A stretch of 64,000 nt of DNA from an uncultured Gammaproteobacteria bacterium. Its GTDB lineage: Bacteria > Patescibacteriota > Microgenomatia > Levybacterales > UBA12049. Below the pieces are notes generated by a model that saw only the letters and a list, made by a program, of their open reading frames with translations, had not been told where the DNA came from and searched no databases. The DNA is taken from the NCBI GenBank assembly GCA_964507055.1, contig CAZDOJ010000001.1:721313-785312 (forward strand). The letters run 5' to 3'. Each line of letters begins with the position of its first letter. Positions within the stretch are counted from its first letter, which is position 1. Below are positions 18,123 through 59,147 of this stretch, in pieces. The position numbers and the translations under genes were made by a program.

Positions 18123-18140
18123 TAATTATTTATATCAATA

Positions 18141-18866: not shown

Positions 18867-18873
18867 TGAAATA

Positions 18874-20886: not shown

Positions 20887-20934
20887 CAGTTATTAAAGTA
20901 TATCAAGCTTTTCTTAGCAAGAATATATGTAAAG

Positions 20935-22005: not shown

Positions 22006-22074
22006 TTCTAAATTGTATCAATTTTTACATCTCTTGCATACAGAGATCACTCGTGTTAGGATATTTTTACCACT

Positions 22075-22332
22075 ATGGATCCTAACTTGCAAAACGCTCT
22101 CATTTATTTCCTCTATGTATGGTCACTAATTTGGAAAGGCATTGCTTTATGGAGAGCAGCTCATTATAAACAACGAAATTGGTTTGTAGTCATGCTTGTA
22201 GTTAATACTGTTGGACTATTGGAGATACTTTATTTACTGCGTTTCTCGAAAAAAAGATTAACATTAGATGAAGTCAAACATTGGAAAAATAACTTTGTAA
22301 AGAGAAGCCCTGAAGAAAAGACAAGAGATTAA
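22075..22332 (+). CDS. small membrane protein, DUF5652-like
   Basis: WSLIWKGIALWRAAHYKQRNWFVVMLVVNTVGLLEILYL matches my recollection of the DUF5652 pattern common in CPR genomes. Candidate promoter upstream: TTGCAT-17-TAGGAT. Confidence 0.5.
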   Translation: MDPNLQNALIYFLYVWSLIWKGIALWRAAHYKQRNWFVVMLVVNTVGLLEILYLLRFSKKRLTLDEVKHWKNNFVKRSPEEKTRD

Positions 22333-23091: not shown

Positions 23092-23155
23092 AAGTATTCT
23101 AAATGGGTTTTCTTTATATCACAATCTGTGTATTTATTCTAATTTACTGAACTAT

Positions 23156-25509: not shown

Positions 25510-26227
25510 ATCGAAGATCGTACCATAAAGTAAAACTTTCTATAATTGCCCGAATAATAACTCGTACATTCCCACCACTTTGATCTCCATGCTTTCTTGG
25601 ATAATGTGTCACTTTTACTTGAGCAATTTTCAAATTTTCTTTCTTTGCTTTTGCAAGAATCTCTGTTGTTAACATGGCCCCTTCTGATTTCAATGGGGAG
25701 ATTGCTGCAATAGCTTCTTTTCTAAATAACTTAAATCCGCAATCAATATCTCTAAAATAAAATCTAAAGAAAATAAAATCCCAAACTTTTAGTAAATTCA
25801 TAAGCACATGTCTGAATGGATGATCAATTCTACGATTACGATATCCAATTACGATATCATTATCTTCAATTTTTTCTATAAAGTTTTCAATTTCTGCGAA
25901 ATCAAATTGACCATCACCGTCATTAAATACAACATATTTATATTTTGCATTTTTAAATCCTTCTCGCAATGCAGTCCCATAACCTCTGTTTGGTTGATGA
26001 GAGACAACTCGTAAGCGTTTATCCTTTTCTGCTAATTTTTTGGCAACTTGTAAAGTATTATCTGTCGAACCGTCGTCGACCATAATTATTTCCCATTTCT
26101 CTGCGACTTTTTCTGCAACTGGAATAGCATTTTTTACTACCTGTTTTACATTCGCTTCTTCATTCCAGAAAGGGAAAAATATTGTTAAAGAAGAAAGTTT
26201 ATTTATTTTTTTCTTTTCTTTTTTCAT
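25496..26227 (-). CDS. GT2 polyprenol-phosphate sugar synthase (DPM1/ALG5-like)
   Basis: MVDDGSTDNT, FNDGDGQF and DCGFKLF. Confidence 0.75.
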   Translation of the reverse strand: MKKEKKKINKLSSLTIFFPFWNEEANVKQVVKNAIPVAEKVAEKWEIIMVDDGSTDNTLQVAKKLAEKDKRLRVVSHQPNRGYGTALREGFKNAKYKYVVFNDGDGQFDFAEIENFIEKIEDNDIVIGYRNRRIDHPFRHVLMNLLKVWDFIFFRFYFRDIDCGFKLFRKEAIAAISPLKSEGAMLTTEILAKAKKENLKIAQVKVTHYPRKHGDQSGGNVRVIIRAIIESFTLWYDLRYGRA

Positions 26228-27938
26228 GTAAATGAGTAACCTTTCTACTTGAGATTATACCAGCTACCAATACTATAACTCCAGTAAGAGTTATCATATT
26301 TGCGGCTTTTTCTATGGGAGTTTGTACATATGTTGCAATAACTGTATGCTTACCTTTTGGAAGTGACAGTTGTAATCCTGTAGAAGTATTTTTATATACA
26401 GTATTCTTGCCATCTACAGATATTTGCCAAGCAGGAAAGTATGCAATATTAAGCTTCACTACGCCATCTTTTATCATTAAAATTTCAGCTTTTGCTTGTT
26501 TCGATGTTACAGATTCAGATCGTATACTACCAATACTTTTTTCAACCTCGAATTTTTTAGTTGCAACATGTCGCTTATCTTTAGGCTTCTGGAAACCTGG
26601 AGGCATATATTCATCAGATATTTTTGAAGTATCCCACCGAATAAACGATGTATCTATGTACTGCTGTGAGGATTTAGGGACAATACTTGATGGAGCAAAT
26701 ACATCAATATTTACATAGATAATTGCTACAACGAGGAGTAAACAAAGTATAACTCTTTTCAAACCTGTCAAAGAAAGTACAAAAACACCTCCAAGAAATG
26801 AGATGAAAAAGCTTACTAAGATTAAAAATCTCCATGGGAATTGGAAGAACGACATGAGAGAGAATGTATCCCAAATAAACTTAGAATAGTCGACAGTTAA
26901 TAGTAATGATAATCCTAGTCCACCAATACTTAATAGGATAGGTAAGGTTACCTTCTTATTTTTTCTCAGCAAAATAAGTGGAAGAAGAGATAATACTGCT
27001 AAGAGAAGATGGATTTTACCAACTTTGAATGATAGTCCATCCGTACATCCAGGTACGGATCCACCATATGCCCAAGGACTATCCAATAGTTGTGGAATAC
27101 AGACAAAATGATCATGATAATCAGATCCGCCCCCGACTACAGAAAGTACATTTGTATATTTCATCTCAACTGGCACAGGCAACCAATAAAACGCAGACAG
27201 CATTATTCCAAGTATCAGACTAAATAACAAATATGAACCTGTGGTAAATTTATTTATTTTTGATCTAGCAATAAGAATCACTGTATAAGCAAAAATGAAC
27301 GGAGAAACCATCATCGCTGTCAAGTTATGTGAAAGAATTATGACAGCGAAAGCAATTGAAGCTGTACTGATCCAAACCCATCGTTTGCGTTTTAAAAGTA
27401 ATTTGGTTTCTTTTCCCTTTTCTTGTAACAAAAGTTGATGATTTTGAAACACTTTATAAAGTCCAAAGAAGACTAGGGGAATAAAAGCATATGCCCATAA
27501 TTCAGCTATTGCCCCACGAACATATAAATTGAGAGCATGGTACGGAGCATATACATAAAGCATTGCAGACACAAATCCACCTAATCTTCCCCAAAATTCT
27601 TTTGCTAACAAATACATAAATACCCCAGCAAGAAGTGTTCCCAATCCGATCATAATTTTTGTAGCAATTAAGCTATCAAATCCTAAGATATTAAAAAAGC
27701 CTCCGATGTAATATGAAAAAGGTGCATAAAAATTAAAAATAGGATAACCGTAGCCGTAGCCTAAATTTTCGACCCATCGTACAGGGAAAATACCATCTGA
27801 AAGTGCATCTTTCATTTCCGAAACACGTGCTACTTGAGTATCATCATGCATTGGGAAAAACCCTTGAGAAAATAATGGAAAGATTGCGGGAATACTGAGA
27901 AAGAGCAATATAATTATTAAAAGTATATTCTTTTTCAT
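26199..27938 (-). CDS. polytopic membrane protein with extracytoplasmic beta-rich domain and C-terminal TM anchor (putative GT-C-like)
   Basis: First-loop FFPMHDDTQVARVSEMKDALSDGIFPVRWVENLGYGYGYPIFNFYAPFSYY, about 12 helices, a ~130-aa soluble domain, and terminal helix ITLTGVIVLVAGIISS. Confidence 0.4.
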   Translation of the reverse strand: MKKNILLIIILLFLSIPAIFPLFSQGFFPMHDDTQVARVSEMKDALSDGIFPVRWVENLGYGYGYPIFNFYAPFSYYIGGFFNILGFDSLIATKIMIGLGTLLAGVFMYLLAKEFWGRLGGFVSAMLYVYAPYHALNLYVRGAIAELWAYAFIPLVFFGLYKVFQNHQLLLQEKGKETKLLLKRKRWVWISTASIAFAVIILSHNLTAMMVSPFIFAYTVILIARSKINKFTTGSYLLFSLILGIMLSAFYWLPVPVEMKYTNVLSVVGGGSDYHDHFVCIPQLLDSPWAYGGSVPGCTDGLSFKVGKIHLLLAVLSLLPLILLRKNKKVTLPILLSIGGLGLSLLLTVDYSKFIWDTFSLMSFFQFPWRFLILVSFFISFLGGVFVLSLTGLKRVILCLLLVVAIIYVNIDVFAPSSIVPKSSQQYIDTSFIRWDTSKISDEYMPPGFQKPKDKRHVATKKFEVEKSIGSIRSESVTSKQAKAEILMIKDGVVKLNIAYFPAWQISVDGKNTVYKNTSTGLQLSLPKGKHTVIATYVQTPIEKAANMITLTGVIVLVAGIISSRKVTHLHEKRKEKNK

Positions 27939-27939
27939 T

Positions 27940-29454
27940 TTATTGCTTTAGTTCATACAGTGTGTAATAAGATTCTTTATCTTCTTTTTGAATTTGCAGA
28001 ACCTTTGTGAGTGTCCATGTATCTGGAGCTAAGCCAATCCCTTCGCAAGGAGGACATGGTTGATAAAAGACAACATAAGTTGGCATTGTTTTGCTTGCAT
28101 CGAGTATTTCTTGCGGAGGGGTATCATTTATTGGCCAGTAACCTTGAACTTTTATATTTGGATTCGTGCCAAGATATATATCGAGTGCATATGGCATGAG
28201 GCCAAATGTACCTTGCGTTGCTACATAAATTTTCTCATTTTTTGCTTTCGCTTCGAGAAACTTTACTGTTTCCTTCACGCCATTTCCGGCAGGCCAATCA
28301 GTAACGAATTGTTCTCTATCGCCTTGCGGAATTGCTGCTTTAGAAAAATTAGTCATGATATGAAAATCAGTAACGATCCACATGCCCGTAAATACAACTG
28401 CAATAAGCACTTTTAACCAGCCTGTTTTTACATATGTGAGTAATGTATACAACGAAAATGCACCCAATAAAATAAGCGGCATAGTCATAAAAAGAATAAA
28501 TCGTGGATAGATAACTTTTCCAAAAAACGCCAAAGCCATAAAAGGAACAATAAACCATACAAGTAATAAAAGTTTTTCTCTTGTGTATTTCTTACTGACG
28601 AAGAATGAAGCAAGGACAAGAATAAGGAACGGAAGTGTCATATAACCAATCAACCAACCACTCAAACCTTGTAGGTTGCCAAATACATAAGCAAACGGAT
28701 TCTGGAACCAGTCACTGAATGAATAAATGAACGTAAGATTTTTCTCGCCAATAATATGATAAAAAGGCGACAGTCGTAGAATTGCATAGATTGCCTGAGC
28801 CAATACAAATGCAACTACTGCAAATCCAAACCACTTAAAAAGTTTCTTCCTATCTAACTTTTCTTTGAATGGAAAAAGAAGCAAAGAAAACGGAAGCAAA
28901 ATAAATCCAAAATTTGCACTTGTCTTCGTCAACATTCCTCCTCCAACAATCATCCCCAATAATAATGCTAAGTCTAATCGCACATATCTTGCAAGCAAAA
29001 CGGAGAAATATAATGACCATATGATGAATAAGGCAACCATTGAATCATACAGAGCCATGCGATCATAGACCAAGGCAAACGGGTACAGGACATATAAGAT
29101 GCTCGCTGTTAAACCAATAAACTTATTCTTAAATAGCTCTCTCCCAAGAAGGAACATACCTACCATTGAAGCAAAACCAGTAAAAACAGAGACAAGTCTT
29201 CCTGCAACTAAAGGATCTTTTACAAATTCGATAAGGATCATTGCTGCCCAAATAAATGACGGCTGCTTTCCATCGGTAAGAGAGATAAATCTCCATGTGG
29301 CATCATTATTTGCAATTTGAGCCCAACGGATATAGATGGCCTCATCAGTAAAGATAGGTAGCCCGGTGAGGTTATATAAGCGAGTAAAGAAGTATAATCC
29401 CGCTAACAAAACGAAGAATGTACTGAGATAGAGATGTTTTCTAATATAACGCAT
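27940..29454 (-). CDS. ArnT/PMT_2-like GT-C glycosyltransferase
   Basis: First-loop PIFTDEAIYIRWAQ (DE motif), multi-TM, and a C-terminal ~130-aa soluble domain. Confidence 0.6.
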   Translation of the reverse strand: MRYIRKHLYLSTFFVLLAGLYFFTRLYNLTGLPIFTDEAIYIRWAQIANNDATWRFISLTDGKQPSFIWAAMILIEFVKDPLVAGRLVSVFTGFASMVGMFLLGRELFKNKFIGLTASILYVLYPFALVYDRMALYDSMVALFIIWSLYFSVLLARYVRLDLALLLGMIVGGGMLTKTSANFGFILLPFSLLLFPFKEKLDRKKLFKWFGFAVVAFVLAQAIYAILRLSPFYHIIGEKNLTFIYSFSDWFQNPFAYVFGNLQGLSGWLIGYMTLPFLILVLASFFVSKKYTREKLLLLVWFIVPFMALAFFGKVIYPRFILFMTMPLILLGAFSLYTLLTYVKTGWLKVLIAVVFTGMWIVTDFHIMTNFSKAAIPQGDREQFVTDWPAGNGVKETVKFLEAKAKNEKIYVATQGTFGLMPYALDIYLGTNPNIKVQGYWPINDTPPQEILDASKTMPTYVVFYQPCPPCEGIGLAPDTWTLTKVLQIQKEDKESYYTLYELKQ

Positions 29455-29474
29455 TATGGATATTATACTTAATA

Positions 29475-30929
29475 CTATACCTTTTCAGCAATCAGGTGAT
29501 TCAACCTAACTTTACTAAGAATTACTTCAAGGTCTTTTTTCCTGAACATGTACAATACGTTTAATGTGATCGGAGGAATAAAAATAAGTATATAAGTAAT
29601 GATTGGCCAAATTACTGATTGTGTATTAATCCGATAAATAACCCACAGCAATGGATATGCAAATAAAGATGTAATTGAAAGACCTACTGTAGTTAAGAGC
29701 AACTTTTTATCAAGAACAAGTGGAATTAAAGGCAATATCCAAAGGACATACCAATTCCAATATGCTGTACTAATAAATAATAAATATACTAAGAGTACAA
29801 CGATGTATGCATAGACAGGTTCTATATCATGCTTCCAAACCTGCCACGTAAAATAGAGTAACCATAACAGGAATAAGACAAAAACTACTTGTATTAATTG
29901 CGGCTGGAACAATAGAAGAACTGTAGGTAGCGATTGCCAGTAAACACCACCATTGTATGCAACTCGTTGCAAAAACTCTATAAGATTTACTTGCATAAAC
30001 GAAAATAGTAATGTGTTTATGCTAACGAATCCTGCAACAAAAGAGAGCAATCCAAGATATTTTTTCTTTTTTACTAATGAAAGTAGACAAAAGAAGAATA
30101 AGACAATTGGAATTAATTTTACTTGCACTGCTAGGGCTAAAATTATGCCTGCAAAAAACCATAGCTTCTTACGGAAGAAATAATAACTGAGCAGTGTAAA
30201 GAAAATCATCATACTGTCGTTATGTCCCGAGCCGAATATTTCAAGTATAAAAATTGGATTCCAGAAAACGAATATTAATGCCCAATTTAGATAATTTTTC
30301 TTTTGCTCTTTTAGTACTAAATACAACACATAAAATATCCCAGCTGCAAATAATGCAGGGACCAATTTATAGAGAATAACAAGAGTGACCAAATCATTCT
30401 GTCCAATATACGATGGGAGCAAATATAACAAAAAGTGTATTCCACCATACACACTCGTTGTATCTTTCCAATCTGCTAATACACCAAATTGGTCATCTGG
30501 AAATGTAGCTGGCTTAACTTGCCAAATATTTTCACCATGTACTGTTGCTACACGTTCAGAAAAAATATAAGAGAAAATATCTGTGGATAATATCGGGAAT
30601 GATACAAATGTTACTATTTGGAAAAGTACCGTAAACAGTATTATTTGTTTGAGCGTAAACTTTACCTTGAGAGCAATCAGATATAAAATTACCGCAGCTA
30701 CAGAAACGGCTGCAAATATGATTGTGGGAATAGAATTTAACCCATATCCAGATAATATTGTTTGCATCGAAAAAAGAAAATCTTTTGCTGCTGGATAAAG
30801 ATTTCCAATTCCAATAATTGCTCGAGGGTCTCGAAATAGTAAAACCCATGAGAGGATCAAATATGTAAAAAAACAAAGACTAAGCAAACTAGCAATTATG
30901 ATTGGTAATTGGGATTTATGTAACTTCAT
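29475..30929 (-). CDS. polytopic membrane protein, GT87/DUF2029-like mannosyltransferase candidate
   Basis: STDIFSYIFSERVATVHGENIW (D...Y...G.N pattern) and WNPIFILEIFGSGHNDSMMIFFTLLSYYF. Paralog of 32097..33329. Confidence 0.4.
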   Translation of the reverse strand: MKLHKSQLPIIIASLLSLCFFTYLILSWVLLFRDPRAIIGIGNLYPAAKDFLFSMQTILSGYGLNSIPTIIFAAVSVAAVILYLIALKVKFTLKQIILFTVLFQIVTFVSFPILSTDIFSYIFSERVATVHGENIWQVKPATFPDDQFGVLADWKDTTSVYGGIHFLLYLLPSYIGQNDLVTLVILYKLVPALFAAGIFYVLYLVLKEQKKNYLNWALIFVFWNPIFILEIFGSGHNDSMMIFFTLLSYYFFRKKLWFFAGIILALAVQVKLIPIVLFFFCLLSLVKKKKYLGLLSFVAGFVSINTLLFSFMQVNLIEFLQRVAYNGGVYWQSLPTVLLLFQPQLIQVVFVLFLLWLLYFTWQVWKHDIEPVYAYIVVLLVYLLFISTAYWNWYVLWILPLIPLVLDKKLLLTTVGLSITSLFAYPLLWVIYRINTQSVIWPIITYILIFIPPITLNVLYMFRKKDLEVILSKVRLNHLIAEKV

Positions 30930-32100
30930 GTTTTTTAATTTTATACAAAATTAGCCAGACTGTTAAAGTATACATAAATGGAATAATTAGAAGGAAGTAT
31001 CGTGACCAAACAGGAATAAATGAAAGAAATAGGAGATAGATGATAATCCATATACATGGGAATACTATCATCGATTTGCGATATTTTCTAAAAACAAAAA
31101 CTATAGTTATTGCTGAAATTACGGTAAGTAAAATCCATCCAAAATGCCATTCATCCACAACAGATATTTGCCCCCACCAATTAGCATATTTACCGGTAAA
31201 TATAATTTCCCATGGAGCTGAGAAAGACCCTTTCGCACCTCCGGCATAAAAATTGATAATCCATTTTTGAACGCCTAGAAAATCCATAAATGAATTGCCT
31301 AACAAAAAGTATTGGATATAAGTAGCAACAAACACTATACCTGCAATCGGCAGTGTCATAATATACTTTTTAACTAGTTTGAGTTGCTTCGTGACAACTA
31401 AATAAAGCACAATTGCCCCTATAACGAGAGGAAATGTAGATGCTGTAGATTTAGTTGCAGCCATGAGACCAAGAACAACAGCAGAAGCAAAATACTTTTT
31501 TTTCAGGAAGAAGTAGCAGATCATGAAGAATAGTCCAATATATAAAAGATCTAACAAAGATATTTGAAGTTGTGTAAAAAATAACGGTTCAAAAGAAAGT
31601 AATAAGACTGGAATAAAGGCTGCTAATTTACTCTTAAAGAATAATGTATTAACGAGATAAAAAGCATATAAAGCAAACAGTCCACTTAATAATGCAAAGA
31701 TATTCTGATTCTTAAAAATAAGCTCAGATAAACCAATAAGATACTTTCCAAGGGGTGGAATTTCTGCATTTAAAAGGGTCGGGTCTTTGCCATGAATGTA
31801 TTCCCATCCTGCATATGTATATACACCATCATCGCCTATGGCATTTTTTTTGAGATCAGCTGCTGCTGCATTATTCTTATTCTGTTCAAACCATTGATCG
31901 TCCCAAATACATGTGTAGGGATTTACATGCGGATCCAAATTTTCACATGCAGGTTTGGTGCTCCATTGAGAATTCTCATACTTTAGCTTCCAATAATCTG
32001 CATTAAAAGGGGTAAGATAATCAGTTCTATATTCATATATTCTGAATGCAATATGTACCGCAAAAAGAATCAGTAAACCAATAAATACTTTCTTTCTCAT
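30916..32100 (-). CDS. short GT39 (PMT-like) phospholipid-carrier-dependent glycosyltransferase candidate
   Basis: Loop-1 GDDGVYTYAGWEYIHGKDPTLLNAEIPPLGKYLIG resembles the PMT DE...HPPLGK signature; followed by ~9 helices. Confidence 0.45.
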   Translation of the reverse strand: MRKKVFIGLLILFAVHIAFRIYEYRTDYLTPFNADYWKLKYENSQWSTKPACENLDPHVNPYTCIWDDQWFEQNKNNAAAADLKKNAIGDDGVYTYAGWEYIHGKDPTLLNAEIPPLGKYLIGLSELIFKNQNIFALLSGLFALYAFYLVNTLFFKSKLAAFIPVLLLSFEPLFFTQLQISLLDLLYIGLFFMICYFFLKKKYFASAVVLGLMAATKSTASTFPLVIGAIVLYLVVTKQLKLVKKYIMTLPIAGIVFVATYIQYFLLGNSFMDFLGVQKWIINFYAGGAKGSFSAPWEIIFTGKYANWWGQISVVDEWHFGWILLTVISAITIVFVFRKYRKSMIVFPCIWIIIYLLFLSFIPVWSRYFLLIIPFMYTLTVWLILYKIKKHEVT

Positions 32101-33329
32101 TTCTTTTTCTTTCGTTTAACTTGACGTGCAAAAAGTATTTGCTTGTAAAAAAAGTAGGCGGTAATAATAAGAAATGCTAAAGTATAACTCAAGAAATTCA
32201 TATCTAAAAGAATTTGAGGTATTGGCTTATCCCAGTTACCCGTAAAAAGGAATGGTACATAATTCATCAAGGAGAAAAATGACACAATGACAGCTGGAAT
32301 TAGCACATAATATCGATAGGAAATGAGTGCAGCAAAAGCTAAAACATCAATAAGATACCACGGCTGAAATGTACCTCTATATGATTGTGCCGCCGCTCCC
32401 CCAATAAGAAGTATTACTGCTATGCCAATAATAAAACCCCATTTTCGATGAATCTTCTCGGCCTTCATTCGGTGGATAACGACAAATAGTGGTAATAAAA
32501 CAGCTGTGACAAATTTTATTGCAATGGAAAGAAATAGTAGCCCATACGCTTTACCATGTTTTTCTATAATCATAAAATAGAATGCCCAAAGGGCAAAAAA
32601 CATCATGACAATGTCAATGTGAGGACTTACAACACTTTCTATAAGCATCAGTGGATTTAATCCAAAGAAAATAAGCCCCATTACTTCTCGTTCCGGAGCA
32701 ATCGTCTTTAATATTTTTCCAATAAAGAATACTGAACCGATGAAACAAGCTATCATTAACAATTTAAAAAGGAAAAATGTTGGCAAAAAGAATTGCAAAC
32801 CTATGAAAGAAAGAGGTACTGTAATCACCAACCAGAACGGACCATATGGATATTCTCGATGGGTCCAACGCATAAATGAAAGCATCGGATCCTCAGGATA
32901 ATCTAGAGCTTTTTGTACATAAGGATTGTCTCCATAATGAGTTATAATCTTTGCATCAAATATATAATTAAAAATATCATAGGAAAAAGCGTTGTAGGAA
33001 AAGGTAAGAATAATTGTGGCTGCACCAATCAAAATCCACGTAAACTTTTTTTGAATCTTCTTTTTGGTAGCTAGTCTTAAAAAGATTACATAAAAGACAA
33101 AAAGGATCACAACAAGTGAAACAAAAAGGGTTGCAGAAAGAGGCCTGTCAAAATATCCAATCTGTTGAAAAGAGCGTACAATTTCCTGAAGTGCTTCATT
33201 TCGAGAGAGAGCCAAACTTAAATCAATTTGTGTAAAACTGTAGAAGAATAATCCAACAAGCGGGACACAATAAAAGAAAAGGATTAAATATTCTTTTAAT
33301 GATAAATTTTTAAATAGTGTTTTCACCAT
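32097..33329 (-). CDS. polytopic membrane protein, GT87/DUF2029-like, paralog of 29475..30929
   Basis: SYDIFNYIFDAKIITHYGDNPYV and LNPLMLIESVVSPHIDIVMMFFALWAFYF align with its paralog. Confidence 0.4.
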   Translation of the reverse strand: MVKTLFKNLSLKEYLILFFYCVPLVGLFFYSFTQIDLSLALSRNEALQEIVRSFQQIGYFDRPLSATLFVSLVVILFVFYVIFLRLATKKKIQKKFTWILIGAATIILTFSYNAFSYDIFNYIFDAKIITHYGDNPYVQKALDYPEDPMLSFMRWTHREYPYGPFWLVITVPLSFIGLQFFLPTFFLFKLLMIACFIGSVFFIGKILKTIAPEREVMGLIFFGLNPLMLIESVVSPHIDIVMMFFALWAFYFMIIEKHGKAYGLLFLSIAIKFVTAVLLPLFVVIHRMKAEKIHRKWGFIIGIAVILLIGGAAAQSYRGTFQPWYLIDVLAFAALISYRYYVLIPAVIVSFFSLMNYVPFLFTGNWDKPIPQILLDMNFLSYTLAFLIITAYFFYKQILFARQVKRKKKK

Positions 33330-48490: not shown

Positions 48491-48910
48491 TTAATCAAGT
48501 TGATTAGATACTCTACTGAGGAGTTCATCCATAGAGAAAGGTTTTTCCATAAAGTCATTTGCTCCGGCTTTCATTGCAGACCAACCTATATCACGGCTCG
48601 CAGAGAATAGAATAATTGGGATATCTTTTGTTTGTGAGTTCTTTTTTAGATAGCGACAAATCTCTCTACCATCTTCATTATCCATCCAAACATCCATAAG
48701 GATAAGATCGACATCATTTGATTCGAGATCATAGAGCTTACTTGTATCCCGGATTATATGTACTGTATAACCTTCATCAGTCAAAATGAGTTTTATTGCT
48801 TCACAGATAGACTGATCGTCGTCCACAACAAGTATCTTTTTTCTTAAACCAATCGTACTCTTTTGAGACCTTGCTGAGGCATATAAAGTTTGCTTTTGAT
48901 AGAATTCCAT
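48491..48910 (-). CDS. stand-alone response-regulator receiver protein
   Basis: ILVVDDDQSICEAI, phospho-acceptor context DLILMDVWM, ILFSAS and KPF. Confidence 0.8.
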   Translation of the reverse strand: MEFYQKQTLYASARSQKSTIGLRKKILVVDDDQSICEAIKLILTDEGYTVHIIRDTSKLYDLESNDVDLILMDVWMDNEDGREICRYLKKNSQTKDIPIILFSASRDIGWSAMKAGANDFMEKPFSMDELLSRVSNQLD

Positions 48911-49010
48911 ACAATTATATTGTATGGACGGAGTATGGGGATATCGTAAGAGATATGACGGAAATGTGTTTTATTTTCTTAAAAATCTTGTAAGCATACT
49001 CTACCGAGTT

Positions 49011-52159: not shown

Positions 52160-52525
52160 CTATTTAGCCTTGGTGTGCTTTTTAACCATAGAGAGAAGAT
52201 CATCTATATTAAATGGTTTAAGGAGAAAATCATCTGCTCCCGATTCTTTCGTGATCTTTTCTGTCTCATTATTTGCAGACATCATGACAAGCGGTATATG
52301 TTTGGTATGGGGTTTTGATTTTATATTCTTTGCTATCTGCCCACCATCTTCTCCAAAAAGCCAAATATCCAAGAGGATCATATCAGGTGCATGCTTGTCG
52401 ACTGTTTTATAGACATGCTCACCTTGATCAGCAGTTAAGACATCATAGCCCTCGTTTTCTAGAATAATCTTAACTACTTCTATGATTGCTTTATCGTCTT
52501 CAGCGACGAGGATCTTTTTCTTCAT
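52160..52525 (-). CDS. CheY-like stand-alone response-regulator receiver
   Basis: ILVAEDDKAIIEVV, DMILLDIWL, VMMSAN and KPF. The ATG abuts the sortase stop codon. Confidence 0.85.
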   Translation of the reverse strand: MKKKILVAEDDKAIIEVVKIILENEGYDVLTADQGEHVYKTVDKHAPDMILLDIWLFGEDGGQIAKNIKSKPHTKHIPLVMMSANNETEKITKESGADDFLLKPFNIDDLLSMVKKHTKAK

Positions 52526-53134
52526 CTATTTTTCAACTAGTTTCGAATATATTACATGTCGATCTGAATATCCACTTTCCTTATTCCAATCACCATCGCA
52601 TGTAATGAGGTTAAGCATCGGTGTTGAAGCATTTCCAAAAACCTCAGCTATTGGAAAATCTTTATTGGGATATTTCTTTGAATCGGTAACTTCAAAAGTC
52701 CATTCCTTTCCTTTATCGTCAGTCACTACAATTTCGTCTCCGGCTTCAAGCTTATTTAAATCCCAAAAGACTGCCGCTGAACCATCTTTTCTATCATAGT
52801 GTCCTGCAAGTACCGCATTTCCATTCATACCAGGTCGGAAACCAGGATTATACCATGCGGTGTTATCATCATTACTGGGAGTGTCCATTCTACCTTCTGA
52901 ATCATTAGCGACAGATTCTACTGAAGCATCAACATTTATTTTTGGGATTCGAACATGCTTAGGAACTCCAGGTAAAGGAGCCTGAGTTACTTTCGCTAGT
53001 TCTTCTTCTGATTGTTTTGACTGGGTTGAAAGGACTTGTTTGTCATTATCATTTTTGACGAAGTGTGAGGCAGAGGTCCCAATTATTATCCCAGAAACAA
53101 TAATGACTACTATTGTTACGAGTGCTTTTAACAT
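52526..53134 (-). CDS. class F sortase
   Basis: N-terminal TM anchor, VRIPKINVDASV, AVLAGHYD (His), LNLITCDG (Cys) and DRHVIY (Arg). Confidence 0.85.
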   Translation of the reverse strand: MLKALVTIVVIIVSGIIIGTSASHFVKNDNDKQVLSTQSKQSEEELAKVTQAPLPGVPKHVRIPKINVDASVESVANDSEGRMDTPSNDDNTAWYNPGFRPGMNGNAVLAGHYDRKDGSAAVFWDLNKLEAGDEIVVTDDKGKEWTFEVTDSKKYPNKDFPIAEVFGNASTPMLNLITCDGDWNKESGYSDRHVIYSKLVEK

Positions 53135-53158
53135 AATAAAAAATTAATTATTTTCAAC

Positions 53159-53198
53159 GGAGCAAGATGTATCAACAATGGTCAACACATCTTGCTCC
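53159..53198 (-). terminator. 12-bp perfect hairpin between the small peptide gene and sortase (partial terminator/attenuator candidate)
   Basis: GGAGCAAGATGT (53159-53170) pairs with ACATCTTGCTCC (53187-53198) around a 16-nt loop. The T-run is not directly adjacent to the stem. Confidence 0.4.
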
Positions 53199-53237
53199 AT
53201 ATTTTTAAACGACATATTAGTTTAACTAATATAAAGC

Positions 53238-53420
53238 TTAGTAAGCTCTGTTACCAGTTGCTGGTGCTTCACTTGGCATAGCTGCACTAGTTGTTGGTGT
53301 TACAGTTGTCGTGTTGTTTGTTGTGTTTGTAGGTGTTGCTGTTTGTGCAAATGTCATTGTTGCCGCTGCCATTGCTGAAACTGCGAATACACCTGTTGCG
53401 ATTACTGCTTTTTTGATCAT
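53238..53420 (-). CDS. small secreted Thr-rich peptide (60 aa)
   Basis: Strong SD GGGAGGTGAgtatATG. Signal peptide MIKKAVIATGVFAVSAMAAATMTFA|Q. Mature part QTATPTNTTNNTTTVTPTTSAAMPSEAPATGNRAY. Confidence 0.65.
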   Translation of the reverse strand: MIKKAVIATGVFAVSAMAAATMTFAQTATPTNTTNNTTTVTPTTSAAMPSEAPATGNRAY

Positions 53421-53824
53421 ATACTCACCTCCCTTCGTGCAATTGAATTACTCTTTATATTTTAAAGCTCATTGAGTAGAAGCTTTATCGACCCATCAAT
53501 AAACTGATGAGGAACGATTAATTCATCCTAACATACTTTTTATTTTGCCGTCAACCGCATAGCTATTTTCTTACATCTAAAAGTACCTGACTCTTTAAAT
53601 ATTCATACATTAAGATAAGCTTTTTACATAAAATCGACTAATATTTTGAGCTCTGTCATCTTGATAATTACATAAAGTTAAGAAAAAGTAGCTCAACATT
53701 TCTTTCTGATTCCTTACAAGATTTTGGTTAATCTCTTATTGTTAAGCATTATCCTAACTGGTGTATACAGAAAAAACTTTAGAACACATTTTAAATAGTT
53801 TTTAGGAAAGGAGGTGAATACACA

Positions 53825-54010
53825 ATGGCTAAAACAATGAAAAAAGGAAAAGGCAGAGGTTTTGCTTCAATGAGCAAAGATAAACAGCGCGAAATCGCAA
53901 GTAAAGGTGGTCGTGCTGCGCATATCAAAGGCACTGCCCACAAATGGACAAGTGAGGAAGCTCGAAAAGCCGGTCAACTCGGTGGTCGTGCTCGCCAAAA
54001 GAAGTCCTAA
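53825..54010 (+). CDS. KGG-repeat stress-induced protein
   Basis: SKGGRAAH and GQLGGRAR repeats. SD GGAAAGGAGGTGA lies 8 nt upstream. Confidence 0.7.
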   Translation: MAKTMKKGKGRGFASMSKDKQREIASKGGRAAHIKGTAHKWTSEEARKAGQLGGRARQKKS

Positions 54011-54101
54011 TGGAATTCGGATTCTCGACCGTTATAGACGAGAAGCGAACTAGGTTCGCAAACTTACTGCCCAATGCAGAGGAAGGAGGTGAAAAGTTTT
54101 T

Positions 54102-54353
54102 ATGAATATTTTATCTTGGTTAATCTTTGGAACTATTGTAGGTATTGTCGCTAATGCTATTGACCCTGCACCTAATAGAGGCGGAATATTTGGTTCAATT
54201 TTATTAGGAATTGTTGGAGCACTCGTTGGCGGATTCCTAGCAAATCTCATATTCGGAATAACGGTGACCGGATTTAACGTAACATCATTCTTAGTCGCAA
54301 TTGCTGGATCATTGCTATTACTCTTTGTCGGCAAAGCAATGCGAAGAGCCTAG
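54102..54353 (+). CDS. GlsB/YeaQ/YmgE-family stress-response membrane protein
   Basis: ILSWLIFGTIVGIVANAIDP...GGIFGSILLGIVGALVGGFL. SD GGAAGGAGGTGA. Confidence 0.85.
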   Translation: MNILSWLIFGTIVGIVANAIDPAPNRGGIFGSILLGIVGALVGGFLANLIFGITVTGFNVTSFLVAIAGSLLLLFVGKAMRRA

Positions 54354-54383
54354 GATATGATACGAAATATATACGGGAGTATG

Positions 54384-54425
54384 AGCAATCCCAAAATTTA
54401 TAGATAAAAGAATATTGGGATTGCT
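54384..54425 (+). terminator. 11-bp perfect hairpin downstream of the GlsB-like gene (terminator candidate, no U-tract)
   Basis: AGCAATCCCAA (54384-54394) pairs with TTGGGATTGCT (54415-54425) around a 20-nt loop. Confidence 0.3.
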
Positions 54426-54483
54426 TCTCTCGTAAATTAAGGATAAAAATAATTAATTTATTTTTGAAAGGAGGTGAAAAAAC

Positions 54484-54795
54484 ATGCAACTTATGCAAAA
54501 TCAACAAAAGAAAAATAATAAACCAATAAGCCCTATTGCTGCCGGTATTACAGGCGTAGTTATCGGGGCAGCGGGAGCAGCTGCAATTGCTTTATCAGAT
54601 AAAGAAACTCGTAAAAAAGCGACTGGTAAAGCGATGAAAGTAAAAGAAGATCTTCATAAATGGAGTTCTAAAACTATTAAAGATATGCAAACTCACGGAG
54701 AAAAAGTCAAAGCGAGTTCTAAAGACGCAATCGATAATAATAAAGAAACAGTCTCAAAACAATTAAAAGATAAAATTGATGAGACATTTAAATAA
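54484..54795 (+). CDS. YtxH-like general stress protein
   Basis: N-terminal Gly/Ala-rich helix PIAAGITGVVIGAAGAAAIALSDKETRKKA followed by a charged coiled region. SD GAAAGGAGGTGA. Confidence 0.5.
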   Translation: MQLMQNQQKKNNKPISPIAAGITGVVIGAAGAAAIALSDKETRKKATGKAMKVKEDLHKWSSKTIKDMQTHGEKVKASSKDAIDNNKETVSKQLKDKIDETFK

Positions 54796-54851: not shown

Positions 54852-55541
54852 TTATATTGCGTCTCTTAAAGAGGAATCATTTTGAGAATATAATGCCACC
54901 TCTTCTTCAAACCGTTTTATATTTCTTATAGTAATTAATCTTCCTGCTTTTCCAAGAAATCCTTTTTTTTCTAATTTTTTCATTTCAACAGAAGTCGTCT
55001 CACGCGTAATGCCAACGAGAGCGGCAACATCTCTATGTGTTAAAGGAACTTCTATGATAACTTCATTATCACCACTTGGCTTCCCAAAACGCTTTGCACA
55101 GACAAGGAGCGTAGTAGCTACTTTGATGTATGCGTTACTTAAGATAAGATACTCCATCCTACTAAATACTCCATCGACCCTACCCATAGCTTGAGTGGCT
55201 AAGTCATATAAGACATCAGGTTTTGTAGTAATAAACTTTATAAATTCTTCTTGTGGAGCACTCCATAATTCAAGCGGCGTAATTGCTTCAAGATAATACC
55301 CATTTACGCTTTTATTGAATCCATAGGTAAAAGGGAAAAAGTCTTTGGGTTTGAGAATCATAAGTGTTAGCTCTTCCCCATCTTCAGTTATTTTATAGAC
55401 ACGAACATATCCGTTCTTTATATAAAAAACATTTTTGGAGGCATCATTTGGTTGGAGGATCATAACTCGCTTTTTATAATAATGGAGTGGATTAGGTTCA
55501 AAAAATTCATCAAGTTGATCTGCTATAGACTTTTTTATCAT
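54852..55541 (-). CDS. Crp/Fnr-family transcriptional regulator
   Basis: cNMP-binding-like beta-roll (VFYIKNGYVRVYKITEDGEELTL) and C-terminal HTH THRDVAALVGITRETTSVEMKKLEKKG. Confidence 0.8.
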   Translation of the reverse strand: MIKKSIADQLDEFFEPNPLHYYKKRVMILQPNDASKNVFYIKNGYVRVYKITEDGEELTLMILKPKDFFPFTYGFNKSVNGYYLEAITPLELWSAPQEEFIKFITTKPDVLYDLATQAMGRVDGVFSRMEYLILSNAYIKVATTLLVCAKRFGKPSGDNEVIIEVPLTHRDVAALVGITRETTSVEMKKLEKKGFLGKAGRLITIRNIKRFEEEVALYSQNDSSLRDAI

Positions 55542-55670: not shown

Positions 55671-56843
55671 ATGAAAAATGATATTTTGGAGCAGATTTAT
55701 CTGACTTCTCTGGATCTTCTTAACGCTAATTCAGCAAAGAAACTAGAATCGACAATCGTAGAATCATCAAAAAAATTGAGCGGAGCGGCTTATGCTCAGC
55801 TTTACTTCAACCAAAAAGACCGATTAAAGAAAATCTATAGCTCTGATGCCGAGATCAAAAAAAGTACGATGGTGAAAATGCCTGGATTTAAGAAATATGC
55901 TCTTAAACATAGTATCGCTACAGTTCCACAAGATGTTCTTAAAACGTGGAATATTGACCATATGCCACCGAATATTCATGCGATTACTGTGATCCCACTG
56001 CTACACAAAGATAATCCTCTGGGATTTCTTGTCCTATTTTTTATTGAGAAAACAGACCTAAGCGAAGAAACGAAAAAAGCCCTTCTTACACTAAGCCAAA
56101 CAGCAGTTCTTGCGATAACAAAATCACGAATTCAGGAGGAATCCAAAAAAGCATTGGAAATACGAGATAGATTTATTTCGCTTGCTTCACATGAACTACG
56201 AACACCTTTGACTTCTTTACATGGATACATCCAATTGCTCCATGCAAGAATGTCAGGAAAAGAATCTGTTGAAGCACGGTGGATAAACGAATTACATATT
56301 GAGAGCATACGATTAACAACTTTAGTAAAAGAATTGCTCGATGTTAATAGAATCAAACAAGGTCAGTTTGCTTTCGTCTTTAGTGAGGTCCCTATGCAAG
56401 AGGTTGTTGAGAAAGCAATTGAACACTATCGATTAACTAGTGCAGATCATCCTATTACTTTCCAGAATAAACTGGAAGATGATGGCAAAGTCGTAGGAGA
56501 TTTCGATAAGCTGGTTGAAATGGTTTCAGGTCTATTAGGAAACGCGATAAAATTTTCAAAGCCACAAGAAAAGATAGCCATTCTACTGAAAAGTACTCAG
56601 GGAATGCTTTCATTAACGGTAAAAGATACTGGAAAAGGTATAAGTAAGAAGGACCTTGCAGCTGTCTTTGATGGGTTTTATAAAAGTTCTCACGCAAGCC
56701 ACCTAGAAGGTATGGGCGTCGGATTACTTTTAGCAAAGCATATCGTTGAGAATCATAGAGGGAAAATCAAAATCACTTCAAAAGAAAATAAGGGAACAAA
56801 AGTGGAAATTACATTACCGACGATTAAGGCTACTCCCCTTTAA
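55671..56843 (+). CDS. soluble sensor histidine kinase (GAF-like N-domain + HisKA + HATPase_c)
   Basis: H-box SLASHELRTPLTSL, N-box LLGNAIKFS, G1 VKDTGKGI, G2 GMGVGL. No TM segment. Confidence 0.9.
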   Translation: MKNDILEQIYLTSLDLLNANSAKKLESTIVESSKKLSGAAYAQLYFNQKDRLKKIYSSDAEIKKSTMVKMPGFKKYALKHSIATVPQDVLKTWNIDHMPPNIHAITVIPLLHKDNPLGFLVLFFIEKTDLSEETKKALLTLSQTAVLAITKSRIQEESKKALEIRDRFISLASHELRTPLTSLHGYIQLLHARMSGKESVEARWINELHIESIRLTTLVKELLDVNRIKQGQFAFVFSEVPMQEVVEKAIEHYRLTSADHPITFQNKLEDDGKVVGDFDKLVEMVSGLLGNAIKFSKPQEKIAILLKSTQGMLSLTVKDTGKGISKKDLAAVFDGFYKSSHASHLEGMGVGLLLAKHIVENHRGKIKITSKENKGTKVEITLPTIKATPL

Positions 56844-58421
56844 AACGCATGCTTCATAGGGACCTAATGTGATTTGTGTTTCGTTATCAGCGATTGTATG
56901 ATCCGCATTTGTAGATACAACTACCTGCATATCAGAAAACGGTAAGGTCCCAATTTGGTCCTGATCAGTAAAATTCAACAGAATAACTCGCATATCATTA
57001 TCAATCGATCGAGTGAATGCAAAAATCTCATTGTTTTTAACGTCTAGACTATCATATGCACCATTAATAATAACCGCATCCTCCTGACGCATTTTTAGAA
57101 GCTTCCTGTAAAGTGAAAGCATTGAATGCACATCCTTACTTTCATTGGAAACATTTCGTTCCTCCCAAGCATTTTCCAAAGGCAACCACGGTGTTCCTTT
57201 CGTAAATCCAGCATTTTTTGAAGCATCCCATTGCATTGGAGTTCGGACTGGATCACGTCCAAATCCTGGCGACGTATATTCTTTCGTGTCATGAATCATT
57301 TCTCGCGGGATATGCACATCTTCCATACCAAGTTCCTCCCCATAATAAATAACAGGCATACCTGGAAGTGTCAAAAGTAATACTGCTGCAATCTTTGATT
57401 GCCCACGACCAAATCGTGTAGATATACGTGGCTTATCATGATTCCCAAAAACAAATGTTGGAAGCTCTGTTGGAGTTAAGGATTTGATATAAGCCGTAAC
57501 AAATTGTCTGTATGAATCCGCACTCCAAGGAATACGTTGGAGTTCAAAGTTGAAGGGGATGACATTCCCACTGGAGATATTCTCGTAATATTTTTTGTAA
57601 ATCGGGATTGCATCAGTTCCTTTTTTATTGAGATACGATTCAGTAATAAGAAATCCGTCACCATGTTCTTTAATGAATGAACCGAGTTCATCGATAATTT
57701 CAAATACTTTCTCTTGATCACGCATATATATATGCAACTTTTTATAAAACGGTTGTATCGCACCTTCAACATAGGTTAGATCATCAGGTTCATCAAGAAA
57801 TCGTGGATCTTTCCAAAGGTAATTTGCAGCATCCAACCGAAATCCATCGACATCTTTATCAATCCAAAACTTGATAACCTTTTTTACTGCTTGCATCACT
57901 TCGGGATTTGCCCAATTGAGATCAGGCTGCTCAGTAAGAAATGAATGGAAATAATATTGTCCCGTTGATTCATCCCAAGCCCACGGTGTCGGCTCAAAAA
58001 CACTCATCCAGTTATTTGGCTCTTTGCCGTCGACTTTGTCTTTCCAAATATACCAATCTCTTTTGGGATTATCACGGCTGGATCGAGATTCTTGAAACCA
58101 TGGATGCTGATCTGAGGTATGATTTACAACAAGATCGATTACCACTTTAATCCCTCGGGCATGTGCTTGTTCAATAAACTTTTCAAAATCTTTCAGAGTT
58201 CCAAACTCTGGGGAGACATCACAATAATTCTCAATATCATAGCCTCCATCCTTCATCGGAGATGGATAAAATGGAGTAATCCAGATGGCATTAATACCTA
58301 ATTCTTTGAGGTAATCGAGTCGAAAAATGATGCCATTGAGATCACCATAGCCATCACCATTGGAATCTTGGAAACTTCGAGGATATATTTCGTATAGAAC
58401 GAGATTATTCTTTGATGACAT
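56814..58421 (-). CDS. GH13 alpha-glucosidase / oligo-1,6-glucosidase family
   Basis: YEIYPRSFQDSNGDGYGDL, DLVVNHTS, GFRLDAANY and FGNHD. Start taken at MSSKNN; the track ORF starts at 58433. Confidence 0.9.
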   Translation of the reverse strand: MSSKNNLVLYEIYPRSFQDSNGDGYGDLNGIIFRLDYLKELGINAIWITPFYPSPMKDGGYDIENYCDVSPEFGTLKDFEKFIEQAHARGIKVVIDLVVNHTSDQHPWFQESRSSRDNPKRDWYIWKDKVDGKEPNNWMSVFEPTPWAWDESTGQYYFHSFLTEQPDLNWANPEVMQAVKKVIKFWIDKDVDGFRLDAANYLWKDPRFLDEPDDLTYVEGAIQPFYKKLHIYMRDQEKVFEIIDELGSFIKEHGDGFLITESYLNKKGTDAIPIYKKYYENISSGNVIPFNFELQRIPWSADSYRQFVTAYIKSLTPTELPTFVFGNHDKPRISTRFGRGQSKIAAVLLLTLPGMPVIYYGEELGMEDVHIPREMIHDTKEYTSPGFGRDPVRTPMQWDASKNAGFTKGTPWLPLENAWEERNVSNESKDVHSMLSLYRKLLKMRQEDAVIINGAYDSLDVKNNEIFAFTRSIDNDMRVILLNFTDQDQIGTLPFSDMQVVVSTNADHTIADNETQITLGPYEACVLKGSSLNRR

Positions 58422-59076
58422 AACCAAAGCCACGAACAGAGTGCAGTAGCTTTTTCTCAGAATCTGAATCTACTTTCTTTCGGAGATATCCCATGTAGAC
58501 ATCGACGACACGGGTTTCAACATCACTTGAGTATAACCAGATTCGGGAAAGAATCATTTCTCGAGTAAGGATACGACCTTTGTTACTCATTAAATATTGC
58601 AATAATTTAAATTCCTGTGGAGTTAATTGGATTTGCTTGCCACTTCTTTTTACTTCCATTGTCTTTGAATCTAGTTCTAAATCTGCAACTTTCAAAACAG
58701 CTTCATTACTAACTTGTTTTCTGAGTCGGGCTTTAATACGAGCGAGAAATTCATCAGCGACAAATGGCTTTGTCATATAATCATCTGCACCAAGGTTTAA
58801 TCCTTCAACAATATCGTTAATTGAGTCTTTTGCTGTAAGAATGATTATTGGGAGGTCTTTATACTTCTTACGAATTTCGCGAGTAACTGCTTCACCTGAC
58901 ATAACTGGAAGTCCAAGATCCATAACTACTAAATCAGGTTCAGTTTTTTTGAAGTAATCTAAGGCTGCGATACCATCAGAAACAGTATGCACGGAGTATC
59001 CGTTATCAAGAAGTAATTCTTTAAGATATTTTTGCAATCCACGGTCGTCTTCGACCACTAATATTGTTTGCATCAT
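58405..59076 (-). CDS. OmpR/PhoB-family response regulator
   Basis: ILVVEDDRGL, DLVVMDLGLP, KPF, and winged helix LTPQEFKLLQYL...GFGYVI. Start trimmed to MMQTIL, with TGcTATAAT 10 nt upstream. Confidence 0.9.
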   Translation of the reverse strand: MMQTILVVEDDRGLQKYLKELLLDNGYSVHTVSDGIAALDYFKKTEPDLVVMDLGLPVMSGEAVTREIRKKYKDLPIIILTAKDSINDIVEGLNLGADDYMTKPFVADEFLARIKARLRKQVSNEAVLKVADLELDSKTMEVKRSGKQIQLTPQEFKLLQYLMSNKGRILTREMILSRIWLYSSDVETRVVDVYMGYLRKKVDSDSEKKLLHSVRGFGYVIKE

Positions 59077-59147
59077 AACTCGTGCCATTATAGCAACAAA
59101 TGTAAGAACGCACAACTCATAAAATAGCGTATGTAAAAAATTTCAAG

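Follow-up and report, generated by a model that had tools for sequence, protein, structure and literature searches.

What does a sortase do with a small secreted peptide that ends in a sorting motif and has no anchor? The question is raised by a locus in a 64,000-nucleotide (nt) stretch of contig CAZDOJ010000001.1, which we call the window (G+C content 35%) and which comes from a member of the Levyibacteriota (Microgenomates, candidate phyla radiation (CPR)). A gene on the minus strand encodes a 60-residue precursor with an N-terminal signal peptide and the pentapeptide APATG at residues 52-56, and it is followed by genes for a sortase and a single-domain response-regulator receiver. The peptide has neither a hydrophobic segment nor a charged tail after this motif, and so lacks two of the three features that define a cell-wall sorting signal. 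Our answer, given with moderate confidence, is that peptide and sortase form a dedicated substrate-enzyme cassette that would put a short, possibly glycosylated peptide on the cell envelope.

An earlier note on this DNA had suggested that the sortase might process the peptide, and had proposed a survey of sortase neighbourhoods for small Thr-rich genes of this kind. We surveyed 80 species-level genomes encoding a relative of the window sortase, and scored each locus for a same-strand open reading frame (ORF) that ends no more than 600 nt upstream of the sortase match and has PxTG in its last 20 residues. Such an ORF was found in 54 of the 80 related loci; 50 of these encode small peptides, three encode Ferritin_2 proteins of Chloroflexota, and one (L074) encodes a Gly/Ser-rich protein of approximately 109 amino acids. 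A census of all ORFs of at least 40 codons in the loci and the window (6,913 ORFs in 665 kb) contained 53 that end in [AP]PxTG-x(0-16), and 52 of them lie directly upstream of a sortase. Recurrence of the peptide architecture upstream of sortases at these rates is far beyond chance. The expectation of the note was thus borne out: across Microgenomates, a small Thr/Pro-rich ORF ending in P-x-T-G-x(1-9) is conserved upstream of related sortases.

The pairing was also seen from the peptide side, where P0014 and P0008 are both followed by a sortase, a receiver and Lon. It is kept down to approximately 36-40% sortase identity, while the core of the peptide diverges completely. In OZ246394.1 (1.61 Mb), the complete genome closest to the window, the pair occurs twice, at L005 and L010, and the existence of the second pair indicates that the cassette can duplicate. 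At L010 (3617-4519) the peptide has the tail KAE, the sortase is 54% identical, and the pair has its own 17-bp hairpin and no receiver. The exact locus of the window is also present in the Logan samples SRR14271343 and SRR14271346. The Microgenomates cassette was found on many contigs labelled 'uncultured Gammaproteobacteria bacterium', which show synteny with Levyibacteriota; these labels look wrong.

Every element that the earlier note had reported was found in its place. In window coordinates, the locus is laid out as follows.

53426..53432, minus strand: Shine-Dalgarno (SD) sequence GGAGGTG, 5 nt before the peptide ATG
53238..53420, minus strand: peptide precursor gene, 60 amino acids, ATG start and TAA stop, with the product MIKKAVIATGVFAVSAMAAATMTFA / QTATPTNTTNNTTTVTPTTSAAMPSEAPAT / GNRAY
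53346..53420, minus strand: signal peptide, residues 1-25, with a predicted signal peptidase I site between T-F-A and Q, from sequence inspection
53253..53279, minus strand: extended sortase recognition motif M-P-S-E-A-P-A-T-G, residues 48-56, from the family motif, with the predicted cut between T55 and G56
53241..53252, minus strand: four-residue tail N-R-A-Y, the predicted leaving group, with no hydrophobic segment
53157..53200, minus strand: RNA hairpin with a 20-bp stem, including 4 G-U pairs, and a 4-nt loop; its perfect 12-bp core is at 53159-53198
52526..53134, minus strand: sortase, 202 amino acids, with an N-terminal membrane anchor, a linker of about 35 residues and a catalytic domain; no SD
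52160..52525, minus strand: single-domain response-regulator receiver, 121 amino acids, from its Response_reg match

The spacer between the peptide gene and the sortase gene is 103 nt long. As the earlier note had observed, the sortase stop codon (TAG) directly abuts the ATG of the receiver gene, and the gene for the Lon protease starts 190 nt beyond the receiver gene. A strong terminator downstream of the receiver gene was not found, nor were convincing regulatory palindromes in the 404-bp region upstream of the peptide gene.

The note had described the peptide as carrying a clear signal peptide and having PATG four residues from its C-terminus, without the usual hydrophobic helix and basic tail, and each of these points stands. 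By inspection, the predicted signal peptide has an n-region with KK, a hydrophobic core and a T-F-A site before Q that fits the -3/-1 rule; the site is kept in all 51 of the peptides compared below. The mature part ends in MPSEAPATG-NRAY. The pentapeptide and the signal peptide of a sorting signal are therefore present, while only NRAY, with a single Arg and no basic cluster, stands where a membrane-spanning segment and a positively charged tail would be expected. There is no read-through frame at the peptide stop, the TAA being followed by further stops in frame.

No Pfam or NCBIfam family matched the window peptide at E <= 0.01, and the curated LPXTG-anchor model that is included in NCBIfam was likewise unmatched. 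Relatives were nevertheless found by direct search: 5.8 billion proteins yielded 16 homologues, and all 16 have a signal peptide, a Thr/Pro-rich middle and an end consisting of AP[ADS]TG plus 0-4 residues. With a profile, a search of 1.84 billion representative proteins gave 52 clusters (at 50% identity) with E <= 0.001, of which 51 contain proteins of 52-89 amino acids with the same architecture. This architecture comprises a signal peptide, a cleavage site followed by Gln, a variable Thr/Pro/Ser-rich stretch, the motif [V/M]P-x-[G/S/A]-A-P-x-T-G, and a final 1-9 residues. Our searches of the literature on class F sortases, on CPR and Chloroflexi sortases and on MPXTG/APXTG motifs returned no description of the peptide family, and we found no paper, Pfam model or NCBIfam model that describes it; these searches covered open-access texts and bioRxiv, and an earlier description is possible.

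We measured the conservation of the motif and the cleavage site in 51 peptides, the 50 from the survey and the window's own. The P, T and G of PxTG were imposed by the search pattern, but the flanking positions were not. Relative to the motif P, position -4 is P in 49 of the 51, position -1 is A in 44 and P in 6, position -2 is G, S or A in 43, and position -5 is V in 26 and M in 7. Beyond TG the peptides continue for 1-9 residues (median 3), in no case with a hydrophobic segment. The first residue of this tail is R in 17 peptides, F in 8, M in 7, L in 6, Y in 5 and H in 4, with K in some, and its second is G in 31 and A in 15. At the other end, all 51 have the signal peptidase site [A/V/T/I/S/G]-x-[A/G] followed by Gln at +1, and the Gln was also found in further profile clusters. 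In the window, S or T is the apparent first residue of the two other proteins that can be seen to be secreted, so that the Gln seems to be specific to the peptide family. The region between the site and the motif varies in length and sequence and consists of 33% T, 20% P, 12% S and 0.7% K, with no Cys, giving mature lengths of 14-42 residues after processing; the window's mature peptide has no Lys. Judged from these sequences, selection conserves the signal peptide, the cleavage site with its Gln, the T/P/S composition and [V/M]PxxAPxTG, and the middle is free to vary.

Where might such a motif come from? The sorting motif of the window peptide is represented by the stretches ...AMPSEAPATGNRAY and TSAAMPSEAPATGNRAY; the peptide ends AAMPSEAPATGNRAY, and other CPR members end ...VPSGAPATGMGG. 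Outside CPR and Chloroflexota, the best-scoring relatives of the sortase are two Bacillota sortases (Jeotgalibacillus and Alteribacter) that are class F by NCBI annotation; in the catalytic domain the identity is 47%. In both cases the substrate gene is directly upstream on the same strand, as in the window. Near their C-termini these substrates have ...MPSEMPETGMGG and ...MPEEMPQTGMGG, ahead of a membrane segment and a basic tail. Specifically, the Jeotgalibacillus DUF4397 protein (...ESMPSEMPETGMGGAANQSNTGMMAVAAMAAGAALLFVFRKRVFQS) has the motif MPSEMPETG and the Alteribacter protein (...GDMPEEMPQTGMGGGAGSNTGMMLWITISALLAASAAVYFKKKSRTGVTDFK) has MPEEMPQTG, both nearly equal to MPSEAPATG and often with GG after the motif. 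Both have the complete series of motif, spacer, membrane segment and basic tail. The CPR peptides share the double-proline motif of the Bacillota proteins, often with the same GG after it, and stop where the spacer would begin. The cargo also differs, since the Bacillota substrates are proteins of 266 and 464 amino acids with a full tripartite signal, whereas the window cargo is a low-complexity peptide of 30 residues whose signal ends four residues past TG. The motif of the window peptide thus resembles an anchorless version of a class F sorting signal. The conserved pairing and the match of this extended motif to Bacillota class F substrates together support the earlier suggestion that the peptide is processed by the sortase. 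A competing substrate was not seen nearby: apart from the peptide gene, no ORF in the 64-kb window has PxTG close to the C-terminus of its product.

Two further groups of relatives bear on the same comparison. Directly upstream of class F-like sortases in Chloroflexota are the three Ferritin_2 proteins (L026, 3073-3810; L027, 2784-3551; L055, 2803-3465), which end in MP[SN]TG[LR]GG plus 10-14 polar residues and have no membrane segment; a Tat signal was scored in two of the three. They appear to be a second kind of anchorless sortase substrate and an intermediate case. The position and the anchorless signal are the same as in the window, but the cargo is a folded domain of about 200 amino acids exported by Tat, as against a mini-peptide that is presumably exported by Sec. 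In the Paceibacterota relative L065, the upstream substrate is a classical one, a 736-residue protein with LPETG, a membrane segment and an RRMRIRRE tail.

If the residues after TG are discarded, they should be under little constraint. The comparison of the window with L005 of the closest genome is informative on this point. Over peptide codons 1-56 (window 53253-53420 against L005 3710-3877), nucleotide identity is 98.8% and there are no amino-acid changes. Over the four tail codons and the stop, identity is 80%, and three of the four codons differ non-synonymously (NRAY to LRAN). Elsewhere in the locus, nucleotide identity is 81.8% for the sortase gene, 85.2% for the receiver gene and 90-92% for the flanking non-coding DNA. 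With residues 1-56 identical and the residues after TG varying freely, the tail seems to behave as a leaving group. The identity of codons 1-56 suggests either an unusually strong constraint that extends even to synonymous sites or a recent gene conversion.

The enzyme itself looks active, to judge from an intact catalytic triad, a modelled sortase fold (an eight-stranded beta-barrel) and an N-terminal anchor. It matches the Pfam Sortase family (PF04203) over residues 61-200 with 86.8 bits, against a cutoff of 26.6. H112 and C179 (in LNLITC, a TLxTC-like motif) are invariant among 29 homologues and R192 is at least 90% conserved, which gives the His-Cys-Arg triad. The AlphaFold model has a mean predicted local distance difference test score (pLDDT) of 80, with a core above 90, and Foldseek matched it to class E, C and A sortases with E-values of 1e-9 to 1e-8 and template modelling scores (TM-scores) of 0.5-0.76. 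The hydrophobic N-terminus reads LKALVTIVVIIVSGIIIG. The class assignment made by the earlier note holds in part: class F (NF033748) is by far the best class in NCBIfam, followed by class E with 41 bits and with class C at 23.5 bits, but its score of 137.2 bits, over model positions 9-154 of 155, is under the curated cutoff of 166, and the sortase is best described from its sequence as class-F-like. SrtF of P. acnes, the only characterised member of class F, is reported to use LPXTG (PMC8225981), and the physiological role of class F sortases remains unknown (PMC13251363, 2026).

Compared with classical LPXTG sorting (SrtA and protein A in S. aureus, SrtE and the chaplins in Streptomyces), the window system has in common the signal peptide, an xPxTG motif and a membrane-anchored Cys transpeptidase with a His-Cys-Arg triad, and the chaplins, like the window peptide, are small sortase substrates. 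The window system is unlike the classical one in the missing hydrophobic segment and charged tail and in the first residue of the motif, which is Ala or Met rather than Leu. Unlike housekeeping sortases, whose substrates are scattered, the window sortase has a dedicated substrate gene adjacent to its own.

The locus also carries signs that substrate and enzyme are made in different amounts. The earlier note had ranked the SD of the peptide gene as the strongest type in the window. GGAGGTG is indeed among the strongest, but it is not unique, since three neighbouring small stress-type genes have it too. There are seven copies in the window, and four of them lie within 1.1 kb (53.4-54.5 kb), one each for the peptide, KGG, Transgly_assoc and YtxH-like genes. 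The identical SD precedes the peptide gene at L005, L006 and L008. Neither the sortase gene nor the receiver gene has an SD.

The 12-bp hairpin reported earlier is present as the core of the longer, 20-bp stem with its G-U pairs. Four pairs of this kind mean that the stem forms only in RNA of the minus strand. The spacer, folded as a stretch of 106 nt, gives -38.3 kcal/mol (z = -9.7), and none of 200 shuffled sequences was as stable. Provided that the gap is long enough, almost all loci have a stem-loop between the stop codon of the peptide gene and the start of the sortase gene; by minimum-free-energy folding these stems are 10-24 bp long with z typically -4 to -7, and those of different lineages have unrelated sequences. 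In the Levyibacteriota clade the base of the stem, GGAGCAARAUG, is conserved, with double-sided changes at 8 of the 12 consensus pairs. A search of the whole window against Rfam gave nothing. A second, AU-rich stem-loop (53206-53240, minus strand) begins at the peptide stop codon, with five outer and nine inner pairs in the minimum-free-energy fold; it is also found at L005, and in altered form at L007.

We considered a canonical intrinsic terminator and rejected it here and at most loci. No U-tract occurs within 10 nt of the window stem, where the next 10 nt are UGAAAAUAAU, and a terminator scan did not call the window hairpin. Among the 39 equivalent hairpins that were scored, only approximately 10 are followed by a U-rich stretch. 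We interpret the hairpin either as an attenuator that needs no U-tract or as an element that stabilises the 3' end of the mRNA. Since the peptide gene has a strong SD and the sortase and receiver genes have none, this arrangement, together with the hairpin, would be expected to yield far more substrate than enzyme. The earlier proposal that the hairpin sets a high ratio of peptide to sortase is supported in so far as the stem-loop recurs with compensatory changes and the SDs are asymmetric; it does not hold in the form of a canonical terminator.

The anatomy of the locus, the conservation of the pairing, the motif, a complete catalytic triad and a hairpin that recurs were observed directly, and they suggest the following mechanism for the cassette. 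The 60-residue precursor would be made in large excess by way of its strong SD and the intergenic stem-loop, and exported by Sec, and its signal peptide would be cut between TFA and Q. The membrane-tethered, class-F-like sortase would then recognise MPSEAPATG and cut between T55 and G56, discarding NRAY. The resulting 30-residue Thr/Pro-rich peptide, Q26-T55, would be joined through its C-terminal Thr to an amine of the envelope, most likely that of a peptidoglycan precursor. As there is no membrane segment, the precursor would presumably be kept within reach of the sortase by its signal peptide, before this is cleaved, or by its abundance near the membrane. Short, unstructured peptides would thus coat the cell densely, plausibly with O-linked glycans and with pyroglutamate at the N-terminus. 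This cap, which the Gln at +1 would readily form, would shield the peptide from aminopeptidases.

The Thr/Pro/Ser-rich stalk is similar to regions that are O-mannosylated in secreted proteins of actinobacteria, and glycosylation is plausible given the membrane glycosyltransferases in the window. These form a run on the minus strand (14873-33329) with at least three PMT_2 genes, two GT87-like genes (one below the Pfam cutoff) and one PTPS_related gene, which are candidates for O-glycosylating exported peptides rich in Ser and Thr. The same run holds proteins with 6-12 transmembrane segments and no assignment.

Several points weigh against the cassette reading. An upstream PxTG ORF is missing from 26 of the 80 related loci. 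The search for other substrates covered, of this genome, the 64-kb window only, and in addition about 600 kb of flanking DNA from relatives. The sortase falls short of the class F cutoff. Cleavage, the acceptor, glycosylation, the pyroglutamate and the mechanism of retention are inferred. The length of the sortase linker is not correlated with that of the mature peptide (Spearman rho 0.12, p = 0.41, n = 48; both approximately 20-45 residues), and the idea that the signal peptide serves as an anchor gained no support from this comparison. Generalising to all class F sortases had to be rejected, as the Thermomicrobiales-type class F sortases at three high-GC loci (L089-L091; one is annotated Thermomicrobiales) have no adjacent PxTG gene. 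Finally, the anchorless signal may, by analogy with protein A, mean an outcome other than anchoring. Schneewind and colleagues reportedly found in 1992-1993 that S. aureus protein A without the hydrophobic domain or the charged tail is secreted and not anchored; that anchoring was lost in protein A without these elements makes an anchorless variant notable.

The three high-GC loci have a conserved protein of their own. A Cys-rich protein of approximately 110-130 amino acids (CCGPxC...CRNRC) comes after the class F sortase at L089 (3429-3824) and L091 (2469-2795) and is flanked by the sortases in the two-sortase locus L090 (2049-2420); in two of the loci a resolvase follows as well.

The absence of an anchor leads to a different account of the product, in which the peptide is a sortase substrate but is not attached to the wall, ending up as a cyclic peptide, as a Thr/Pro-rich homopolymer, or as a trimmed and released peptide that is pheromone-like or of the ribosomally synthesised and post-translationally modified (RiPP) kind. 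We think this account unlikely. A peptide without a membrane anchor does fit a soluble product. The cyclic and polymeric versions require a bond between the C-terminal Thr and the alpha-amine of the N-terminal Gln, in the same or another molecule, and Gln is at +1 in 51 of 51 peptides while the other secreted window proteins appear to start with S or T. The near absence of Lys (0.7%) leaves no conserved residue for a pilin-type linkage. Conserved ends around a hypervariable core, and the order of precursor, hairpin and enzyme, resemble RiPP operons such as the nisin and cyanobactin loci. In nisA-then-nisB operons, as in those for fimbrial major subunits, a small highly expressed gene and a stem-loop precede a weakly translated processing enzyme. 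The likeness to operons of this type lies in the order of gene, stem-loop and enzyme; the window differs in that the enzyme is a sortase, the hairpin mostly has no U-tract, and there are no conserved transporter or immunity genes.

That last difference also counts against an unanchored product, because the only clusters that span many loci are those of the sortase and the peptide, and no conserved transporter, immunity or receptor gene is nearby. A low-complexity T/P/S core that varies in length, with 14-42 residues after processing, is unlike a receptor ligand. Gln at an N-terminus tends to form pyroglutamate and would then no longer be available as a nucleophile, and protection from aminopeptidases alone could explain the conservation of the Gln. 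We know of no natural cyclic peptide or N-terminally linked polymer made by a sortase. That the sortase uses the invariant N-terminal Gln as its nucleophile, and so produces head-to-tail cyclic peptides or a Thr/Pro-rich homopolymer fibre, seems to us distinctly improbable. A pilin (class C) hypothesis was rejected separately, there being no conserved Lys and the sortase not being class C (23.5 bits). The pili described in a recent preprint on CPR (10.64898/2026.03.03.709456) assemble by donor-strand exchange, not by sortases.

The conserved signal peptide invites another explanation of how the precursor could do without a C-terminal membrane segment. If the signal peptide were retained and the C-terminal Thr were linked to peptidoglycan, the peptide would be a covalent tether between membrane and wall, with a role like that of Braun's lipoprotein (Lpp). 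Lpp of E. coli is very small and abundant, and its C-terminal residue is linked to peptidoglycan by an L,D-transpeptidase, a Cys enzyme. The window peptide is likewise small and apparently abundant, its family's mature length of 14-42 residues is about right for the span from membrane to wall, and the signal peptides of the Levyibacteriota clade show unusually strong conservation. Across the wider family, however, the hydrophobic region is generic in sequence, and the textbook signal peptidase I site in 51 of 51 peptides, with a variable bulky residue at -2, points to cleavage. The likeness to Lpp is one of function only; the two systems differ in enzyme family, linkage chemistry and lipid anchor, and the signal peptide here appears to be removed. 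A tether of this kind is therefore rather improbable in our view.

It could also be argued that the peptide is no substrate at all, and is instead a partner or regulator of the sortase (for example, a pseudo-substrate in the active site), or that two envelope genes merely happen to be syntenic. The sorting signal does fail two of the three classical requirements, the sortase scores below the class F cutoff, and the case for cleavage is indirect. Synteny or partnership would be hard to reconcile with a pairing that persists to approximately 36-40% sortase identity despite full divergence of the peptide core, and with a motif that matches true tripartite signals beside class F sortases. The residues after TG vary freely, as for a leaving group, and a cell would not be expected to produce far more of a stoichiometric inhibitor than of its target. 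We regard a role other than substrate as very unlikely.

The last gene of the unit raises the question of signalling. The receiver, a canonical single-domain response regulator, matches Response_reg over residues 5-115 of 121 with 87.6 bits (cutoff 30.2); D10, D11, D53, S83 and K103 can be read from its sequence, and it has no output domain. The earlier note had regarded the coupling of a sortase to such a protein as unusual. The coupling is real but lineage-specific: the receiver gene comes straight after the sortase gene in 12 of the 80 loci, every one of them from the Levyibacteriota-like clade, and also at L087 and L088, always with Lon, and it is absent from L010 and from all other lineages. 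Since it is missing at L010, the receiver is not part of the core system. It is co-expressed with the sortase here, as a lineage-specific passenger or regulator that is not the core of the mechanism, and it may belong functionally with the kinase or with Lon.

These genes belong to a block that is syntenic in Levyibacteriota and runs from a soluble GAF histidine kinase through Crp and the stress genes to the peptide, sortase, receiver and Lon genes. In the window, the GAF histidine kinase is at 55671-56843 and the Crp-family regulator at 54852-55541. The small stress-type genes, namely those for a KGG repeat protein, a Transgly_assoc/GlsB-like protein and a YtxH-like protein, each with a GGAGGTG SD, are on the plus strand at 53825-54795, divergent from the peptide gene. 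Between 48494 and 59142 there are three receiver-domain genes around Lon (52160-52525, 48494-48970 and 58408-59142). We speculate that a single-domain receiver adjacent to Lon could be a protease adaptor.

The synteny of the block, together with the receiver ATG that abuts the sortase stop, would agree with a signalling module in which the peptide is sensed and the receiver and the nearby kinase relay the signal, perhaps to Lon. We find such a module highly improbable. The kinase has no N-terminal hydrophobic segment and is probably soluble, in which case it could not sense an extracellular peptide directly. Direct adjacency of the receiver in only 12 of the 80 loci, its absence from the L010 pair of the closest genome, and a linkage to Lon that is about as tight as that to the sortase all point away from the peptide as its partner.

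The substrate-enzyme cassette that we favour would provide a testable cognate substrate, small enough for chemical synthesis, for the class F-like sortases of a large uncultivated group. Because the same motif is anchored in Bacillota and anchorless in CPR and Chloroflexota, it also suggests that the three-part sorting signal is not universal. The enzyme would be a sortase with the new specificity [A/M]PxTG and a minimal leaving group, and so a possible tool for protein ligation. Should the reading with Gln as the nucleophile prove true, the locus would hold a natural counterpart of sortase cyclisation and polymerisation in the laboratory, and a new class of ribosomal peptide product; in a wider sense, anchorless signals would then represent a second mode of sortase action in Microgenomates and Chloroflexota. 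If the peptide is instead linked to the wall and glycosylated, these ultra-small bacteria would have in it a major component of their surface that had so far escaped notice.

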